Shown: positions 1,135 to 56,822 of the stretch, one piece after another | Numbering within the stretch: position 1 is the first letter of the stretch | Layout: each line of letters opens with the position of its first letter | Sequence record: NC_027395.1 | Source of the DNA: Escherichia phage vB_EcoP_SU10 | Length of the DNA stretch: 64,000 nt | Reading direction: 5' to 3' (one strand) | Notes under the pieces: model-generated | The model's database searches: none | Seen by the model: the letters and a program-made list of their open reading frames with translations, nothing else | Told to the model about the DNA's origin: nothing | Program-made: the position numbers and the translations under genes

Positions 1135-1353
1135 ATGAAAATGATGAAACAAGCTGCATATGGTTTAATATGTTTAGGCGCAGGTGTTGTGGTATCCACC
1201 GCAGTTCCTGTAGGCGCAGTTCATCCATTAGTAACTGTCCCTGCTCCAGTAGAGAAGCTCAGCTCTCAATGTAAGCAGAGAACAATTCAAAATAACTTAG
1301 TTGTTATTTGCCCTGATGCTGAATCTAACGCTCTGAGAAAGATACTACCTTAA
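1135..1353 (+). CDS. small membrane protein, holin candidate
   Basis: 72 aa, one hydrophobic segment (AAYGLICLGAGVVVSTAVPVGAV), AGGAGA RBS, immediately upstream of endolysin. Confidence 0.4.
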   Translation: MKMMKQAAYGLICLGAGVVVSTAVPVGAVHPLVTVPAPVEKLSSQCKQRTIQNNLVVICPDAESNALRKILP

Positions 1354-1382: not shown

Positions 1383-1874
1383 ATGGATAACGTCGCATTG
1401 CCACCTGTACAACTAAACTTAAGCCCAGCTGGAATGGAATTCATCATGAAGCATGAGGGTATGAGAACAAAGGCTTATAAAGATTCCGCAGGTATCTGGA
1501 CGATATGTGTAGGGGCTACGCGCGATATGAATGGTTATCCGGTTAGACAAGGATTAACGTATTCTATAGAGGATTGTCTAGCTCTGCTAGATAGAGACAC
1601 ACAAGACTCTGTTCGTGCTACTCAGAAGAACATAAAGGTTCCTTTACTAGTTCATGAGTTTGATGCACTCACTTCTTTCAACTTCAATGTTGGCAGTGGG
1701 GCTTTGAGCACATCTAAGTTAAGGAAGGTTATCAATGGAGAAGTGAAAGGGGATGTTTATTCCGAATTTCTTCGTTGGGATAAAATAACGGTCAGGGGAG
1801 AAAAGCAGAGAAGTCAGGGTCTTCATAACAGAAGGGTTGCAGAAGCTGATCTTTACACTGAAGGTAAATATTAA
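1383..1874 (+). CDS. endolysin, GH24-type phage lysozyme
   Basis: HEGMRTKAYKDSAGIWTICVGAT matches the catalytic Glu/beta-hairpin region of T4/P22-type lysozymes; strong RBS AAAGGAGG. Confidence 0.75.
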   Translation: MDNVALPPVQLNLSPAGMEFIMKHEGMRTKAYKDSAGIWTICVGATRDMNGYPVRQGLTYSIEDCLALLDRDTQDSVRATQKNIKVPLLVHEFDALTSFNFNVGSGALSTSKLRKVINGEVKGDVYSEFLRWDKITVRGEKQRSQGLHNRRVAEADLYTEGKY

Positions 1875-19637: not shown

Positions 19638-21123
<1,486 letters not shown>

Positions 21124-21124
<1 letters not shown>

Positions 21125-21384
21125 TATTCTATTCCACGTTCTTTCAGAGCTTCTAACAATCCGTTGTGATTGGCAGCACATTCTGTGTACTGGTCCTGAT
21201 ACCACTCCAACGTAGTGGCTAGTGCTTTTCCTTGAGCACTCTCTAAAAGAGGTAGGTCAACCCTACATTCAGCTTTTAGGTTTGTTGGTAAGGGCATTGA
21301 TTGCCTGCTGTTGTCGCTCGTTGAACAAGCTGACATACTCATCACTAGCGCAGACATTATAAAAAACTGGTTTAGTTTTCTCAT
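21124..21384 (-). CDS. o-spanin candidate (outer-membrane lipoprotein)
   Basis: MRKLNQFFIMSALVMSMSAC signal peptide with lipobox-like Cys; overlaps 3' end of the i-spanin gene in another frame. Confidence 0.4.
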
Positions 21385-21619
21385 AATGCATCTCTTTATA
21401 AACGGTTTCCGTGTTCTTCTTCCAGTTAGATAAACCGGTAAGAACTCTCTGAGCAACTTCATCAGCTGCTCTATTTCTTTCAATCTCTAACTCTTGCTGG
21501 TGCTTCTCTTTGTCCAGATTACTGCTGTCTGTTTGATATTCGTTAAACTTCATACCACCAAAGAATACAAGAGCTGAGAAAACGATAAACCCTAAGTTAT
21601 CACTTAACGTGTTTTGCAT
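21269..21619 (-). CDS. i-spanin candidate
   Basis: N-terminal TM LGFIVFSALVFFGG then charged coiled-coil periplasmic domain; RBS GGAGA; classic overlapped Rz/Rz1-like layout. Confidence 0.5.
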   Translation of the reverse strand: MQNTLSDNLGFIVFSALVFFGGMKFNEYQTDSSNLDKEKHQQELEIERNRAADEVAQRVLTGLSNWKKNTETVYKEMHYEKTKPVFYNVCASDEYVSLFNERQQQAINALTNKPKS

Positions 21620-21631
21620 GTTGTCTCCAAC

Positions 21632-21655
21632 GAAAAAAGCCACCCGGAGGTGGCT
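21632..21655 (-). terminator. intrinsic terminator
   Basis: AGCCACC-TCCG-GGTGGCT hairpin followed by TTTTTT on - strand, after HNH gene. Confidence 0.55.
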
Positions 21656-21677: not shown

Positions 21678-22091
21678 TTATATGAATTTCTGCATACCTT
21701 TGATACGAGGGTTATCATCACCAACTCTCGATTTACAGTAAGCGATAAAAGATTCAGTATTGAGGTTATCTTTTTGGGAACCCCACTGAAGGTTGTCTGC
21801 TCTATTGTTGCTCGGATTATCATCCAGATGCATAACAACAGCGTTAGGAAAAGGTTTCTCACCGTGAAAAGTCTCACACACTAAGATATGAATCCTTTTC
21901 TTAAACTTTCTTTTCTTGTTTACAAACACCATTCTTCCATCTTTCTCTCTATATCCGCTATATGGTTTTCCTACGAAAAGCCTAACTCCACCATTATTCA
22001 TTATGGCTGTGAAAGGCTTAATCTTAACTCTACCAAAAGATGATACGGAAAGGAAATCATAATAGGGGTGATCTTTCCAGACTTCTTCCAC
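21678..22091 (-). CDS. HNH homing endonuclease
   Basis: HILVCETFHG ... HLDDNPSNNRADNLQWGSQKDN classic HNH_3 motif. Confidence 0.7.
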   Translation of the reverse strand: MEEVWKDHPYYDFLSVSSFGRVKIKPFTAIMNNGGVRLFVGKPYSGYREKDGRMVFVNKKRKFKKRIHILVCETFHGEKPFPNAVVMHLDDNPSNNRADNLQWGSQKDNLNTESFIAYCKSRVGDDNPRIKGMQKFI

Positions 22092-22100
22092 TATTTATCC

Positions 22101-22847
22101 TCAAAATGGGCTATCGTTGTCGTCTTCGTAAGTAGAAGCAGGCTCTTTATCAATCGTAGGGATTGAAGGGGTAGCTTCTTTCTGTTCTGTTTCAGAAGCA
22201 CGAGTAATTTCACGACCAGCCAGAGGCATGTTCTTAGCGTCATTAGCTTGAGTAAGCAGGTTGCGCTGGAACGGGAACATCAGTTGATAGGATGCTACGT
22301 TCTCATCGGTTTCAGCATATGGTTCGAAGAATACCATAGGACTACGAGCTTCACCAACTGCTGCACGATATTTGGTTGGGATTGGAGAAATGGTCTTGAT
22401 GGAGTTTTTAACTTCACCAGCTTTGTTAGTGTAAGAGTTAACCAGAATGTTAACAGGCTGACCTAACAGCACATCCTTGAACCAAGACAGATCACCTTTC
22501 AGTGCTTGAATACTTGGGTCAATCATCTTGCAAAGATCAAGAATACCAGAGTTCTTAGCTCGTGGGTTTACATCATAACTCTTGAACTGGCAAGCCGGAC
22601 GTGGTTCTAATGCCTTACCATCGGAATCTTTACCAGTAGCATCAACACCAATCAGCTCGAAAGCTAAATCCATACGGAAAGTCGGATTCTTAGGAGTTAC
22701 TGCTTTGGTCTTCGGGTCAATCCAAGGGTCACGATTGTGAACACCCAAACCTACTACACGAACGATACGTGCTTCGTACTCACCATCAGGGATTACATCG
22801 TAGTTGGATTTACGGGAAGCAGTTGCGATAGTTGGAATCATAGACAT
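22101..22847 (-). CDS. single-stranded DNA-binding protein candidate (T7 gp2.5-like)
   Basis: 248 aa with acidic C-terminal tail ending ...YEDDNDSPF (acidic tail with terminal Phe as in gp2.5); position beside replication genes. Confidence 0.45.
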   Translation of the reverse strand: MSMIPTIATASRKSNYDVIPDGEYEARIVRVVGLGVHNRDPWIDPKTKAVTPKNPTFRMDLAFELIGVDATGKDSDGKALEPRPACQFKSYDVNPRAKNSGILDLCKMIDPSIQALKGDLSWFKDVLLGQPVNILVNSYTNKAGEVKNSIKTISPIPTKYRAAVGEARSPMVFFEPYAETDENVASYQLMFPFQRNLLTQANDAKNMPLAGREITRASETEQKEATPSIPTIDKEPASTYEDDNDSPF

Positions 22848-22906: not shown

Positions 22907-22915
22907 TATACATTA
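22907..22915 (-). promoter_or_regulatory. TAATGTATA promoter-like nonamer upstream of SSB gene
   Basis: Exact nonamer on - strand 59 nt upstream of ATG 22847. Confidence 0.45.
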
Positions 22916-22978: not shown

Positions 22979-22987
22979 TAATGTATA
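22979..22987 (+). promoter_or_regulatory. TAATGTATA nonamer in opposite orientation (divergent, no + gene downstream)
   Basis: Exact nonamer on + strand inside 410-bp AT-rich intergenic region. Confidence 0.3.
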
Positions 22988-52427: not shown

Positions 52428-52649
52428 TTAGTAAACTAAACCTATAGCCTTTGCATCAGGCTGAGGGACTACTTTTGCACTAGGGCGATAGCCATCCACT
52501 GAGCCATTCCAAAGATTGACACAGGTGATATACCCATCGTTCAAGTAGTCTGTTTTAATCCAGAAGTGTTTATCATGACCAAAAATACTTCCGTTTGGCA
52601 GAGTGGACAGCTCAACGGTTTTAAGCGACTGCTTAGAGTCTAGTTTCAT
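52428..52649 (-). CDS. small early protein, GDVF-motif paralog family
   Basis: LSTLPNGSIFGHDKHFWIKTDYLNDGYITCVNLWNG. Confidence 0.45.
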   Translation of the reverse strand: MKLDSKQSLKTVELSTLPNGSIFGHDKHFWIKTDYLNDGYITCVNLWNGSVDGYRPSAKVVPQPDAKAIGLVY

Positions 52650-52906: not shown

Positions 52907-53188
52907 TTACCACTCCTTACCGGTTGTTGTTACAGAACCACCACACCACTGCGCATCGGATAAGGTTTTAGTCTTCTCATCTACTGCTGCACCATTCAGG
53001 CATGAGATACCACTGTAACGCATATCAATTTCACCAGAAGGAACCTTCTCGCCCTTATGCCAGCGAGAAACACAAACACCTTCCACTGCTACTGCACACC
53101 ATCCATCAGGACGGCTCTGTACGCAGCCTGTAAGGGCCACACAGACAAGGAAGATACAGATTAAGGATATTACACCACCCCAACTCAT
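52907..53188 (-). CDS. Cys-rich lipoprotein candidate
   Basis: Hydrophobic leader ending in lipobox LTGC; n-region lacks basic residues. Confidence 0.4.
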   Translation of the reverse strand: MSWGGVISLICIFLVCVALTGCVQSRPDGWCAVAVEGVCVSRWHKGEKVPSGEIDMRYSGISCLNGAAVDEKTKTLSDAQWCGGSVTTTGKEW

Positions 53189-53328: not shown

Positions 53329-53404
53329 TGGTGCGCCCTACAGGACTCGAACCTGTAACCAATAGCTTAGAAGGCTACTGCTCTATCCATTGAGCTAAGA
53401 GCGC
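53329..53404 (-). tRNA. tRNA-Arg (anticodon UCU)
   Basis: Hand-folded cloverleaf: acceptor GCGCTCT/AGGGCGC, D-arm GCTC-AATGGATA-GAGC, anticodon loop CTTCTAA, T-arm ACAGG-TTCGAGT-CCTGT, encoded CCA. Confidence 0.8.
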
Positions 53405-55005: not shown

Positions 55006-55224
55006 TTACTTTTGGGATAAACACAGATCAGGACGTGGCATAACAGTGGTTGATAAACCGAAGACTTCAACAGAACCACTGTTCAGATCGGCGGCCTTAC
55101 ACAAACCGTCAGGAGTTTTATCTTCTAACATCAGCCAGAAACGTCTATCGTAAGAGAAAACATCACCACTTTTAACATCTTCTGCATTTGCATATTTAGG
55201 ATAATCAACTACTTTAATTTCCAT
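55006..55224 (-). CDS. small early protein, GDVF-motif paralog family
   Basis: VKSGDVFSYDRRFWLMLEDKTPDGLCKAADLNSG. Confidence 0.45.
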   Translation of the reverse strand: MEIKVVDYPKYANAEDVKSGDVFSYDRRFWLMLEDKTPDGLCKAADLNSGSVEVFGLSTTVMPRPDLCLSQK

Positions 55225-55482
55225 TCACTTACCCTTGTTGGTAATAACAACATCGTGAAGAAGAACAACCTTGCTTTTCGAGCTAAGCTTAAGGACTTGC
55301 TTATTTGTTAGACTAAGGACGACACAACCACCATCGGAAGGCTTGGTCTCTTCAATCTGTGGGGTAAATAGCTGAACAACCATGTAGAAATCTGCTCGTG
55401 TTTCCCTGATTTGGAATACATCTCCAAGTTTGAGATCACCAACACACAAAGACGGTTCATTTACTTCAAGATTAATCTTCAT
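55225..55482 (-). CDS. small early protein, GDVF-motif paralog family
   Basis: LKLGDVFQIRETRADFYMVV. Confidence 0.45.
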   Translation of the reverse strand: MKINLEVNEPSLCVGDLKLGDVFQIRETRADFYMVVQLFTPQIEETKPSDGGCVVLSLTNKQVLKLSSKSKVVLLHDVVITNKGK

Positions 55483-55708
55483 CTTTAGCCTCTATATTGG
55501 TTATGTGGAGATCACTGCGTACTTGGCAGACTTCATCCCGTTTAAAAGGCATGAGCTTTCCAGTTACCACATCAACACAGTTGACATAATTGTCTGCGTA
55601 CAATGTGTCGGTTCTAATGTAAAGAGAATCTTTACGCTCAAATAGAATCCCCGGCTTCATGTTATTCAAGCGGAGCATCGTACGATCGGATTTAATATTA
55701 ACTTTCAC
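55472..55708 (-). CDS. small early protein, GDVF-motif paralog family
   Basis: MKPGILFERKDSLYIRTD ... CVDVVTG. Confidence 0.45.
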   Translation of the reverse strand: MKVNIKSDRTMLRLNNMKPGILFERKDSLYIRTDTLYADNYVNCVDVVTGKLMPFKRDEVCQVRSDLHITNIEAKDED

Positions 55709-55710
55709 TG

Positions 55711-55935
55711 TTAATCCACCTTATTAGTAAGTCGGGCATTGCTGATCTTCTTGATGACCGTATTACTCTCATCCGTTGCTATAACGCCACAGGAAAGGTT
55801 GATATAGCTCCTCTTGTCTGTTGTCCCAAACTTCTGACTGGATAACATATAATAATTCTCTCCATCTAGAGGGAACTGGAACACATCACCTGATTCTAAA
55901 TCCCCAAGAGTTAAAACCTTTGGGGAGTTGTTCAT
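55711..55935 (-). CDS. small early protein, GDVF-motif paralog family
   Basis: Start at MNNSPKV; LESGDVFQFPLDGENYYML. Confidence 0.45.
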   Translation of the reverse strand: MNNSPKVLTLGDLESGDVFQFPLDGENYYMLSSQKFGTTDKRSYINLSCGVIATDESNTVIKKISNARLTNKVD

Positions 55936-55936
55936 A

Positions 55937-56233
55937 TCAATTATCACTGTTAATCTCCTGCTGCTTAGCAATAGCCACTCGCAAGTCTTCATTAGCACGA
56001 GCAAGGCGCAACACTTCATGATTGAGGTTCTGAAGACGTTTGTTTCTGTCTTCAACTTGCATAATAAGATCGTTGAGTGTTACTTTAACTTTCTCATTAT
56101 ACATCTCATCCACTCGGACTAGAGATTTATACATTCTTTCCCAGCTTGCTGCTTTGTTTCTTAGGACAATAAATCCTAGAACGCTGATAGTTAAACAGCT
56201 TACAAAAAGGAATTTATATATTTCTAAAGTCAT
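55937..56233 (-). CDS. membrane-anchored coiled-coil protein
   Basis: N-terminal TM FLFVSCLTISVLGFIVL then heptad-like helix. Confidence 0.4.
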   Translation of the reverse strand: MTLEIYKFLFVSCLTISVLGFIVLRNKAASWERMYKSLVRVDEMYNEKVKVTLNDLIMQVEDRNKRLQNLNHEVLRLARANEDLRVAIAKQQEINSDN

Positions 56234-56432: not shown

Positions 56433-56822
56433 TTATTCCCTAGAGCTATTATCGAACACTAAATCACCACAATACATAGGATTGGCATACCATTTTGGCA
56501 CCCCTTCGCTCTTACTCTGAAAGTAAGTCCCACTGTACAGCGGAACATAATTCTTCTTAAGGGCACGTTTAGCCAGCCGCTCGCTTTCTCCAATAGCTTG
56601 CTTAGTCATCGGATTTTTATCACGAATCAGCTTTACATAACGTTTATAAGGTTTCTCCTGTTTTAATAGTACCGGAATCCACTCAAACTGGTTCTTTTGT
56701 CTTATCACCTGTTCAGCGGTCAGTTTTCGTTGGGCCATTCTATTTATCACGGTATCCGCAACTAAAGCCTTACATGCGGTTGGCTGATTCCCTGCCTCAT
56801 AATAAATAGTCAATGTCAACAT
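56433..56822 (-). CDS. cell-wall hydrolase-like protein (SleB-type domain)
   Basis: IYYEAGNQPTACKALVADTVINRMA resembles the YAEARGE ... VA-VV-NR motif of SleB-type hydrolases. Confidence 0.45.
   Translation of the reverse strand: MLTLTIYYEAGNQPTACKALVADTVINRMAQRKLTAEQVIRQKNQFEWIPVLLKQEKPYKRYVKLIRDKNPMTKQAIGESERLAKRALKKNYVPLYSGTYFQSKSEGVPKWYANPMYCGDLVFDNSSRE

Follow-up and report, generated by a model that had tools for sequence, protein, structure and literature searches.

A probable overlapped two-component spanin pair in the middle-gene block of a phiEco32-like coliphage

The closest described counterparts of the gene pair analyzed here are those of phages phiEco32 and Paul. Kongari et al. 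(2018; PMC6139136) list the phiEco32 pair as "ovl" in their Table S4, with the i-spanin at 35417-35768 and the o-spanin at 35272-35533 (116 and 86 aa; overlap 116); the i-spanin is placed in the JH2 family, together with Felix O1-like phages, and the o-spanin is grouped as NJ01/ECBP2/KBNP1711/PhiEco32. The record of Escherichia phage Paul (MN045231) annotates both an i-spanin and an o-spanin; the genome announcement of this phage does not mention lysis genes. More widely studied systems illustrate different gene layouts: P2 LysB/LysC is the overlapped prototype, lambda Rz1 is wholly embedded in Rz, and the genes for T4 PseT.3/PseT.2 are separated. The T4 pair is unlinked from holin and endolysin and complements lambda Rz/Rz1, and unlinked spanin genes are already known from T4-like phages and from the podophage Privateer. 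Layout can also change between relatives, as in T5 versus Shivani/phiR201, where a GIY-YIG homing endonuclease gene turned an overlapped pair into a separated one (Kongari et al. 2018, PMC6139136). A common feature is the presence of at least one periplasmic Cys for intermolecular disulfides, found in 507 of the 528 catalogued spanin pairs.

The window analyzed here, 64,000 nucleotides of Escherichia phage vB_EcoP_SU10 (NC_027395.1), represents a phiEco32-like podophage (Kuravirus) and is 97-98% identical to vB_EcoP-CHD5UKE1 and phiEco32. Two ORFs overlap on its minus strand with exactly the end points of the original prediction (21124-21619). The i-spanin gene (21269..21619) encodes a 116-aa homolog of phiEco32 gp39; the o-spanin gene (21124..21384) encodes the gp38 homolog with a corrected start, an 86-aa precursor that would give a mature protein of 67 aa. 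The two share a dual-coding stretch of 116 nt (21269..21384), in which the o-spanin frame is +1 relative to that of the i-spanin. Because the o-spanin gene continues for 145 nt beyond the i-spanin stop, the layout is overlapped, like P2 lysB/lysC, and not embedded; the "classic Rz/Rz1 layout" proposed earlier, with the o-spanin contained in the i-spanin gene, therefore does not describe this locus. Protein lengths, overlap, strand and neighbors (gene 40 upstream; macro-domain and sigma-factor genes downstream) are the same as for phiEco32 gp39/gp38 and for Paul. Unlike phiEco32, the window carries an additional HNH endonuclease gene, placed between the terminator and gene 40; the spanin genes themselves are no different. 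We are highly confident that the pair is the two-component spanin of a phiEco32-like coliphage in overlapped architecture; the spanin reading agrees with both the 2018 catalogue and the curated Paul record.

Comparison with the prototypes shows both shared and divergent features. As in P2 LysB/LysC, the o-spanin gene begins within that of the i-spanin, in a different frame, and extends beyond its stop codon, and a type II inner-membrane protein would likewise be paired with an outer-membrane lipoprotein; no sequence similarity was detected to the P2 pair, which lies in a lysis cassette, whereas the pair here is 19 kb from holin and endolysin. The mechanism presumed for lambda Rz/Rz1 (a periplasm-spanning complex, periplasmic Cys and membrane fusion after murein degradation) is presumed here as well. 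However, lambda Rz1 is proline-rich and unstructured, with 40 aa in its mature form, whereas the o-spanin here has 67 and few prolines. Two coiled coils are predicted for Rz and none for the i-spanin here, and there is no sequence homology. The embedded gene and proline-rich Rz1 that define the lambda family are both absent from this pair. T4 PseT.3/PseT.2 resembles it in being unlinked from holin and endolysin, in protein size (117 and 83 aa) and in the two periplasmic Cys of the o-spanin, but its genes are separated rather than overlapped, its i-spanin lacks a periplasmic Cys and its proteins belong to different sequence families.

The start codon of the 116-aa i-spanin candidate is preceded by a GGAG Shine-Dalgarno sequence (21625..21628, minus strand). 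The protein shows 100% identity to the phiEco32 copy (L009), differs by one residue from the Paul i-spanin and matches phrog_1152, "Rz-like spanin" (E 1.8e-37; residues 3-116 covered). It has a single N-terminal hydrophobic stretch followed by ~92 polar or charged residues. Hydropathy places the transmembrane segment at residues ~8-23 (LGFIVFSALVFFGGM; 21551..21598, minus strand; best 19-residue window with a mean Kyte-Doolittle value of 1.55), and a TMpred transmembrane domain at 8-23 is annotated on the near-identical Paul protein. The flanking charges are about 0 on the N-terminal and about -2 on the C-terminal side; by the charge-difference rule this would favor an N-in/C-out topology, on a weak difference, since the N-terminal tail contains no Lys or Arg. 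A net negative N terminus was flagged for the NJ01 ortholog (Kongari et al. 2018, PMC6139136). In distant homologs, an Arg precedes the transmembrane domain in contig L013, and an N-in/C-out topology is annotated in phage Sergei.

The original prediction described this protein as a coiled-coil membrane protein. Its membrane segment is borne out by hydropathy and by TMpred on Paul; its coiled coil is not, since Pepcoil detects 0 segments in the i-spanin of phiEco32 (Kongari et al. 2018 Table S3, PMC6139136) and the heptad-register score compared with 500 shuffles yields p of about 0.08. More than 120 accepted i-spanins likewise lack a coiled-coil prediction (Kongari et al. 2018, PMC6139136). 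The periplasmic domain is predicted to be helical: a Jpred helix content of 61% is reported for the i-spanin (Kongari et al. 2018 Table S2, PMC6139136), and an AlphaFold single-sequence model is all-helix at low confidence (pLDDT 57.7). This domain carries one Cys (NVCASD).

The o-spanin is 100% identical to that of Paul and 98.8% identical to the phiEco32 copy. It matches phrog_2425 (E 3.7e-27) and, weakly, phrog_456, "Rz-like spanin" (E 1.1e-3); a Pfam scan returned no family for i-spanin and o-spanin alike. The predicted lipoprotein signal peptide (MRKLNQFFIMSALVMSMSA; 21325..21384, minus strand) ends in the lipobox M-S-A-C, with cleavage before Cys20. The PROSITE-type lipoprotein pattern is matched by MRKLNQFFIMSALVMSMSAC; the +2 residue is Ser, and therefore the Asp inner-membrane retention signal is absent. 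The Paul record gives a LipoP SPII score of 18.03 with cleavage at 19/20 for the identical protein. These results uphold the earlier claim of a small lipoprotein ORF in another frame. The mature protein contains two Cys (AECRV and TECAANH) and few prolines. These two Cys and the one i-spanin Cys are conserved in L013, Sergei and YenM324; Cys conservation extends from Kuravirus to Sashavirus and Peduoviridae.

Both proteins have distant homologs at 28-40% identity. Using tblastn, the i-spanin was matched to Felix O1, wV8 and UAB_Phi87 (31-33% identity over about 89% of its length; E about 1e-7), and homologs carry a spanin annotation in Felixounavirus and phiEa21-4-like phages. Homologs of both subunits occur in Salmonella phage Sergei (Sashavirus) in the order holin-endolysin-holin-i-spanin-o-spanin, and in Yersinia phage YenM324 (Peduoviridae, P2-like) in the order holin-endolysin-Rz-like-o-spanin. 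By sequence similarity, both subunits are thus shown to be homologous to spanin pairs in the holin-endolysin-spanin cassettes of other phages. A function in lysis is the most likely role of the pair given this homology, its architecture and its context.

The lysis genes of the window itself lie elsewhere. A putative holin (1135..1353, plus strand; phrog_11161 holin, E 2.8e-50), assigned from annotation only, is followed in the late module by an endolysin (1383..1874, plus strand), a T4-lysozyme-type muramidase with no SAR-like N terminus (Pfam Phage_lysozyme, E 5.8e-32; phrog_7). The spanin pair is 19.25 kb away on the opposite strand, in keeping with the ~20 kb originally estimated. Its placement in the minus-strand middle-gene block also proved correct, the class being assigned from secondary descriptions (PMC8948821, PMC9965538). 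In this block, the gene-40 homolog (22101..22847, minus strand) is the first gene of the presumed P40 operon and is followed by an HNH homing endonuclease gene (21678..22091, minus strand) that is absent from phiEco32 and ShigP1. Downstream of the spanins lie the macro-domain (Appr-1-p processing) gene (20684..21124, minus strand), whose ATG overlaps the o-spanin TAA (TAATG), and the gene for the phage sigma factor, a gp36 homolog (20017..20664, minus strand).

Promoters dependent on gp36 have been described upstream of genes 6, 13, 26, 40, 58 and 68, with the consensus tAATGTAtA (PMC8948821). P40 itself has been mapped in phiEco32. Upstream of the gene-40 homolog, TAATGTATA (22907..22915, minus strand) matches the promoter consensus of the phiEco32 gp36 sigma factor exactly; it is likely the middle promoter P40, feeding an operon that includes the spanins. 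A terminator-like hairpin followed by a T-run (21632..21655, minus strand; centroid -13.7 kcal/mol, z -2.9) precedes the i-spanin Shine-Dalgarno sequence by a few bases. The element is annotated "terminator" in Paul. Of the 19 phiEco32-group loci, 18 have it (the window itself and, by pattern search, all 17 fetched phiEco32-like loci); only L013 lacks it. The spanin genes would probably share their transcription with the macro-domain and sigma-factor genes, from the gp36-dependent promoter that precedes gene 40 and by read-through from upstream across this conserved, leaky terminator. That the placement behind a leaky terminator, in a middle operon with the sigma-factor gene and not with the late lysis genes, is itself functional, with read-through setting dosage and the envelope being pre-loaded well ahead of lysis, or with the pair having a second, pre-lysis role, we consider doubtful.

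The same location is what would favor a different function altogether, namely that the pair forms a membrane-spanning envelope complex with a non-lysis role such as superinfection exclusion or middle-phase envelope remodeling. Such a role would explain both the separation from holin and endolysin, 19 kb away on the other strand, and the presumed co-transcription with a sigma factor; phage lipoproteins with exclusion roles exist, Cor and Llp among them. However, both subunits have homologs immediately behind the holin and endolysin genes of Sashavirus and Peduoviridae. Unlinked spanin genes are the normal state in T4-like phages, where the pair complements lambda Rz/Rz1, and also occur in the related podophage Privateer; no other spanin candidate was found beside the endolysin or elsewhere in the window. 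We regard a non-lysis role as improbable and retain the spanin reading.

Less probable still is that there is no spanin pair because the downstream gene encodes a 57-aa cytoplasmic protein starting at Met30 (MPLPTN...), the lipobox-bearing extension being a chance open frame. This is how the gene is annotated, as a 174-nt CDS, in phiEco32, ShigP1, XT73, MLP3, 101114UKE3 and others. The long, 86-aa form has only a weak Shine-Dalgarno sequence (AGAG), and the lipobox pattern alone is not above chance (4 occurrences in the window; 20 shuffles gave 2.55 on average); we therefore took significance from the family matches, the conservation across 19 loci and the codon-position variability, and not from the pattern. 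Against the short form, all relatives keep the extension open and retain its hydrophobic core and [AS]C, even where i-spanin identity falls to 48%. Distant o-spanin homologs align from residue 1 and begin with a signal and lipobox, and wrong o-spanin starts are a common annotation error, documented 64 times (Kongari et al. 2018, PMC6139136). The correct o-spanin start is the ATG at 21384.

The pattern of substitution across the locus bears on the same question. Among 13 distinct relatives, 24 of 113 sites are variable in the overlap, compared with 90/234 in the i-spanin-only part and 65/142 in the o-spanin-only part; the variability of the overlap is thus about half that of its flanks, which argues against a chance frame. 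In the i-spanin-only part, read in its own frame, codon position 3 is variable at 51 of 78 sites and position 2 at 13 of 78; in the o-spanin-only part the corresponding values are 39/48 and 5/47. Both reading frames are conserved coding sequence under selection. Both ORFs and the lipobox Cys are kept in all 19 phiEco32-group loci examined, 15 of which have the overlapped layout (the window, L001, L002, L004, L008-L012, L014, L016-L019 and L013). The i-spanin of the distant contig L013 is only 48% identical, and the overlapped pair and lipobox are still kept.

The pair is split by an HNH cassette in three loci (L006, L007 and L015), in which a rebuilt lipobox is present. In phages E20-1, SU7 and Bas86 the HNH gene separates the i-spanin gene from that of the o-spanin; the cassette is inserted exactly at the lipobox, the C terminus of the i-spanin diverges, and the signal peptide and lipobox are re-created from unrelated sequence. 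The cassette carries surrogate ends for both genes: the 3' end of the i-spanin is recoded, and the o-spanin is given a new start with signal peptide. That the replacement of the o-spanin 5' end supplies a new start, signal peptide and lipobox also argues against the 57-aa form. The cassette would be a mobile element that repairs both of the overlapping genes it interrupts. The event is of the same kind as in T5 versus Shivani/phiR201, found in these relatives and not in the window, and with HNH instead of GIY-YIG. Bas86 annotates a two-piece i-spanin, and an Rfam search of the split relatives (gathering thresholds) detected no group I intron; the HNH gene is most plausibly free-standing, and the "join" in the Bas86 annotation an error.

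Spanin function from a separated pair in the early region, where the original prediction had mentioned a lipoprotein (52907..53188) and a transmembrane protein (55937..56233) beside the overlapped pair, is very improbable. The former does have an LTGC lipobox (Pfam PF24052, Phage_lipoprotein), and in the latter a hydrophobic N-terminal segment precedes charged sequence of helix-like character, but 2.7 kb with several genes and a tRNA separate the two. PF24052 homologs stand alone as lipoproteins in siphophages (T1-like, Dhillonvirus and Rogue1-like) equipped with spanins of their own; HK578, for one, belongs to the Jersey spanin family (Kongari et al. 2018, PMC6139136). The transmembrane protein is confined to Kuravirus-like phages and matches no spanin family. 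The gene distance, the distribution of PF24052 and the lack of a spanin match speak against a second spanin pair there, and we take both proteins to be unrelated to spanins.

A mechanism for the overlapped pair can be proposed from the paradigm of lambda Rz/Rz1 and T4 PseT.3/PseT.2. The 116-aa subunit would have its anchor in the inner membrane, in N-in/C-out orientation, and its periplasmic domain of ~90 aa would be mostly helical, and the 67-aa mature lipoprotein, acylated at Cys20 and with Ser at +2, would be sorted to the outer membrane. The two would bind via their periplasmic domains, stabilized by disulfides, to form a complex that threads the peptidoglycan meshwork and is restrained by it. 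As the genes would be transcribed with the middle-gene block, we propose that spanins reach the envelope before the late lysis genes are expressed; under the spanin model such early loading would be harmless. Once the murein is gone, destroyed by the late holin and endolysin, the complexes would collapse and fuse the inner and outer membranes, completing lysis. The literature searched yielded no experimental test (complementation, deletion or lipid labeling) of any member of this spanin family.

The pair is confirmed as real, but it was catalogued in 2018 and is ordinary. As a discovery it carries little weight: it appears both in a published spanin catalogue and in curated GenBank entries, and unlinked spanin genes are known. 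For the annotation of the family, the majority of Kuravirus genomes on deposit, the phiEco32 RefSeq among them, give the o-spanin as a 57-aa "hypothetical protein" without its signal peptide. For the engineering of therapeutic coliphages, the lysis system of these phages would be split between a late module (holin and endolysin) and a middle block (spanins).

Two overlapping genes occupy positions 21124..21619 on the minus strand, the exact interval in which the original prediction had placed a spanin-like pair. The i-spanin open reading frame (ORF) runs from an ATG at 21619 to 21269 and encodes 116 residues beginning MQNTLSDNLGFIVFSALVFFGGMKFNEYQ, with GGAG located six bases 5' of the start codon; the protein has a single hydrophobic segment close to its N terminus (residues ~8 through 23), and the remainder is polar and charged. 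The o-spanin ORF lies in the +1 frame (ATG at 21384, end at 21124; minus strand) and encodes 86 residues beginning MRKLNQFFIMSALVMSMSACSTSDNS. It fits a PROSITE-type lipoprotein pattern (Cys20, Ser at +2), in keeping with the lipoprotein proposed for this frame. The overlap between the genes measures 116 nt (21269..21384), with the o-spanin continuing 145 nt beyond the i-spanin stop; the pair is thus overlapped, as predicted, but does not have the embedded layout of lambda Rz/Rz1 that had been invoked for it.

By itself, the lipobox match does not exceed chance (four lipoprotein-pattern ORFs in the window versus a shuffle mean of 2.55), so three other lines of evidence carry the case for the pair: similarity to known families, conservation across relatives, and variability by codon position. 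PHROG 1152 ("Rz-like spanin") is the i-spanin match (E 1.8e-37), and the o-spanin matches PHROG 2425 (E 3.7e-27) and, weakly, PHROG 456 ("Rz-like spanin"); a Pfam search returned no family for either protein. Both ORFs and the lipobox, as MSAC, MSSC, LSAC, TSAC, or LMAC, are kept in 19/19 phiEco32-group loci examined. The pair is overlapped in 15 loci of this group (window included), among them an IMG/VR contig with a 48%-identical i-spanin, and is split by an HNH cassette in three, all with a reconstructed signal peptide and lipobox. When 13 distinct sequences are aligned, variable sites at codon positions 1/2/3 number 26/13/51 of 78 in the i-only part and 21/5/39 of about 47 in the o-only part, the latter counted in the o frame. 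Within the overlap, 24 of 113 sites vary, chiefly i-frame third positions, which are second positions of the tolerant o-spanin signal peptide. This pattern is characteristic of two genuine genes on shared DNA.

Searches with tblastn found i-spanin homologues in 411 phage records and o-spanin homologues in 252. At 28 to 40% identity, homologous pairs sit in lysis cassettes of Salmonella phage Sergei (Sashavirus; order holin-endolysin-holin-i-spanin-o-spanin) and Yersinia phage YenM324 (Peduoviridae; holin-endolysin-Rz-like spanin-o-spanin), and pairs in Felixounavirus and phiEa21-4-like phages are annotated as spanins. Conserved cores are shared across groups (PVF.N.C..[DP]EY..L[FY]NE in the i-spanin; K.C...LP.L.G and Y..CA..HN.L in the o-spanin), as are periplasmic cysteines, one in the i-spanin and two in the o-spanin, which fit the disulfide theme of spanins. 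In the literature searched, no member of this family was reported as experimentally tested. The gene pair is confirmed, and these cassette-borne homologues add to the evidence supporting its interpretation as spanins.

The pair is an already known feature. The window region shares 97% identity with Escherichia phage vB_EcoP-CHD5UKE1 and 98% with phiEco32 (Kuravirus, Gordonclarkvirinae), and phiEco32 is among the 528 two-component spanins catalogued by Kongari et al. 2018 (PMC6139136). Their Table S4 lists it as "ovl" on strand -1 (i-spanin 35417-35768, o-spanin 35272-35533, overlap 116; 116 and 86 residues, mature o-spanin 67), assigning the i-spanin to family JH2, which includes Felix O1-like phages, and the o-spanin to the NJ01/ECBP2/KBNP1711/PhiEco32 group. 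The curated record of Escherichia phage Paul (MN045231) gives the i-spanin a TMpred transmembrane segment at 8-23 and the o-spanin, 100% identical to that of the window, a LipoP SPII score of 18.03 with cleavage at 19/20. Most other records, phiEco32 RefSeq included, shorten the o-spanin to a 174-nt "hypothetical protein" from Met30, a wrong-start class of error described in PMC6139136; the corrected start is 21384.

The plus-strand late module reaches about 16.8 kb, and from about 17.9 kb all genes are on the minus strand. A putative holin (1135..1353, plus; PHROG 11161, E 2.8e-50, this annotation being its sole basis) and an endolysin (1383..1874, plus; Pfam Phage_lysozyme, E 5.8e-32) are located among tail genes, an arrangement described for Kuravirus-like phages. 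The spanin pair lies 19.25 kb away on the opposite strand, bearing out the predicted separation. The putative holin apparently has a single clear hydrophobic segment, and its N terminus (MKMMKQ), with a Met-Lys-Met motif, resembles the dual start of lambda S (holin/antiholin). In the early region, a 129-residue protein (56433..56822, minus) weakly matches Pfam Hydrolase_2 (SleB-type cell-wall hydrolase, E 1.7e-7) and could possibly be a second murein hydrolase, far from the lysis genes.

The original prediction had also named two early-region proteins. The lipoprotein at 52907..53188 (minus-strand region; LTGC lipobox; Pfam PF24052, E 2.6e-36) has stand-alone homologues in T1-like, Dhillonvirus, and Rogue1-like siphophages, and the 98-residue transmembrane protein at 55937..56233 (minus) is confined to Kuravirus-like phages. 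They were rejected as a spanin pair; 2.7 kb separates them, and several genes and a tRNA lie in that interval. A tRNA gene (53332..53404, minus; Rfam RF00005, 72.4 bits) lies just 5' of the lipoprotein gene in transcription order. Many records, as well as PHROG 12154, label the 55937..56233 product "DNA helicase", which looks like a propagated misannotation. Small paralogous minus-strand genes of this region (~70-85 residues; 52428..52649, 55006..55224, 55225..55482, 55472..55708, and 55711..56055) share the N-terminal motif (L/S)GD(V/I)F ... (Y/F)(M/I/W).

The minus-strand order around the pair is gene-40 homologue (22101..22847), HNH gene, spanin pair, macro-domain gene (its ATG overlapping the stop codon of the o-spanin), and gp36 sigma-factor homologue. 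An exact gp36 promoter consensus, TAATGTATA, lies 5' of gene 40 (22907..22915, minus); in phiEco32, gp36-dependent promoters matching it have been mapped 5' of genes 6, 13, 26, 40, 58, and 68, and the block holding the spanin homologues is of the middle class. Just 5' of the i-spanin Shine-Dalgarno is a terminator-like hairpin (GCCACC-TCCG-GGTGGC followed by T6; 21632..21655, minus; centroid -13.7 kcal/mol, z -2.9), kept in the window and 17/17 fetched phiEco32-like loci and absent only from the distant IMG/VR contig; the Paul record annotates a terminator 5' of its pair. The space after the hairpin is too small for a promoter, so the spanin, macro, and sigma genes are probably reached by read-through, and since the sigma-factor gene lies downstream, the hairpin would have to be leaky or else be an RNA processing or stability element. 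A second exact TAATGTATA copy (22979..22987, plus) is divergent from the first, about 72 nt away, within the 315 nt that separate the homologues of genes 41 and 40. This arrangement is kept in every related locus with a long enough flank; the plus-strand copy corresponds to none of the six promoters mapped in phiEco32 and would drive transcription antisense to early genes.

The sequences establish that two conserved genes overlap, that one product has a predicted transmembrane anchor and the other a lipobox, and that both are homologous to spanins encoded in lysis cassettes. By analogy with Rz/Rz1 and PseT.3/PseT.2, the i-spanin would be anchored in the inner membrane (N-in/C-out) and the o-spanin lipidated and then sorted to the outer membrane; disulfide-stabilized complexes would bridge the periplasm, held back by murein, and fuse the two membranes once the holin-triggered endolysin has acted. 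Middle-phase expression is compatible with this model, as the complexes would be inert until the wall is degraded. Spanin genes unlinked from lysis genes have precedent in T4-like phages and the related C3 podophage Privateer. The N-in topology is based on a small charge difference, and Kongari et al. (PMC6139136) flag a net negative N terminus in the NJ01 orthologue, for which they note holin as gene 26 and o-spanin as gene 47. No coiled coil is predicted in the i-spanin, contrary to the original description, and its AlphaFold single-sequence model is helical with low confidence.

In phages E20-1, SU7, and Bas86, a ~545-nt cassette with an HNH endonuclease gene (L006, 1030-1560; L007, 1030-1525; and L015, 1834-2330, respectively) is inserted exactly in the lipobox codons (junction ...GTGATGAGTATGT, insert, CAGCTTGTTCAACG...). 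The i-spanin gains a recoded C terminus (GLFNERQQQAAEALKLKN followed by a stop) from the 5' end of the cassette. The 3' end, overlapping the end of the HNH gene, gives the o-spanin a new start and a signal peptide of unrelated sequence (MLTKKKQKSCLVIFLASSLM-AC or ...KKKLLSCTGILLAFSLS-AC), fused in frame to the original Cys and mature portion. The case mirrors that of T5/Shivani (Kongari et al., PMC6139136). An Rfam search at the split loci found no intron, though in the Bas86 record the i-spanin is annotated as a join of two pieces. In the window, an HNH/NUMOD4 homing endonuclease gene (21678..22091, minus) lies between the gene-40 homologue and the hairpin; phiEco32 and ShigP1 lack it and CHD5UKE1, 1-6af, and FH3 have it, so the locus has a second, independent endonuclease insertion site. 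The small results that remain for a known pair are the corrected o-spanin start and this cassette, which, as read from the sequence, converts an overlapped pair to a separated one with both gene ends rebuilt. The re-creation of a lipoprotein signal from a different sequence provides strong evidence that lipidation is the selected property.
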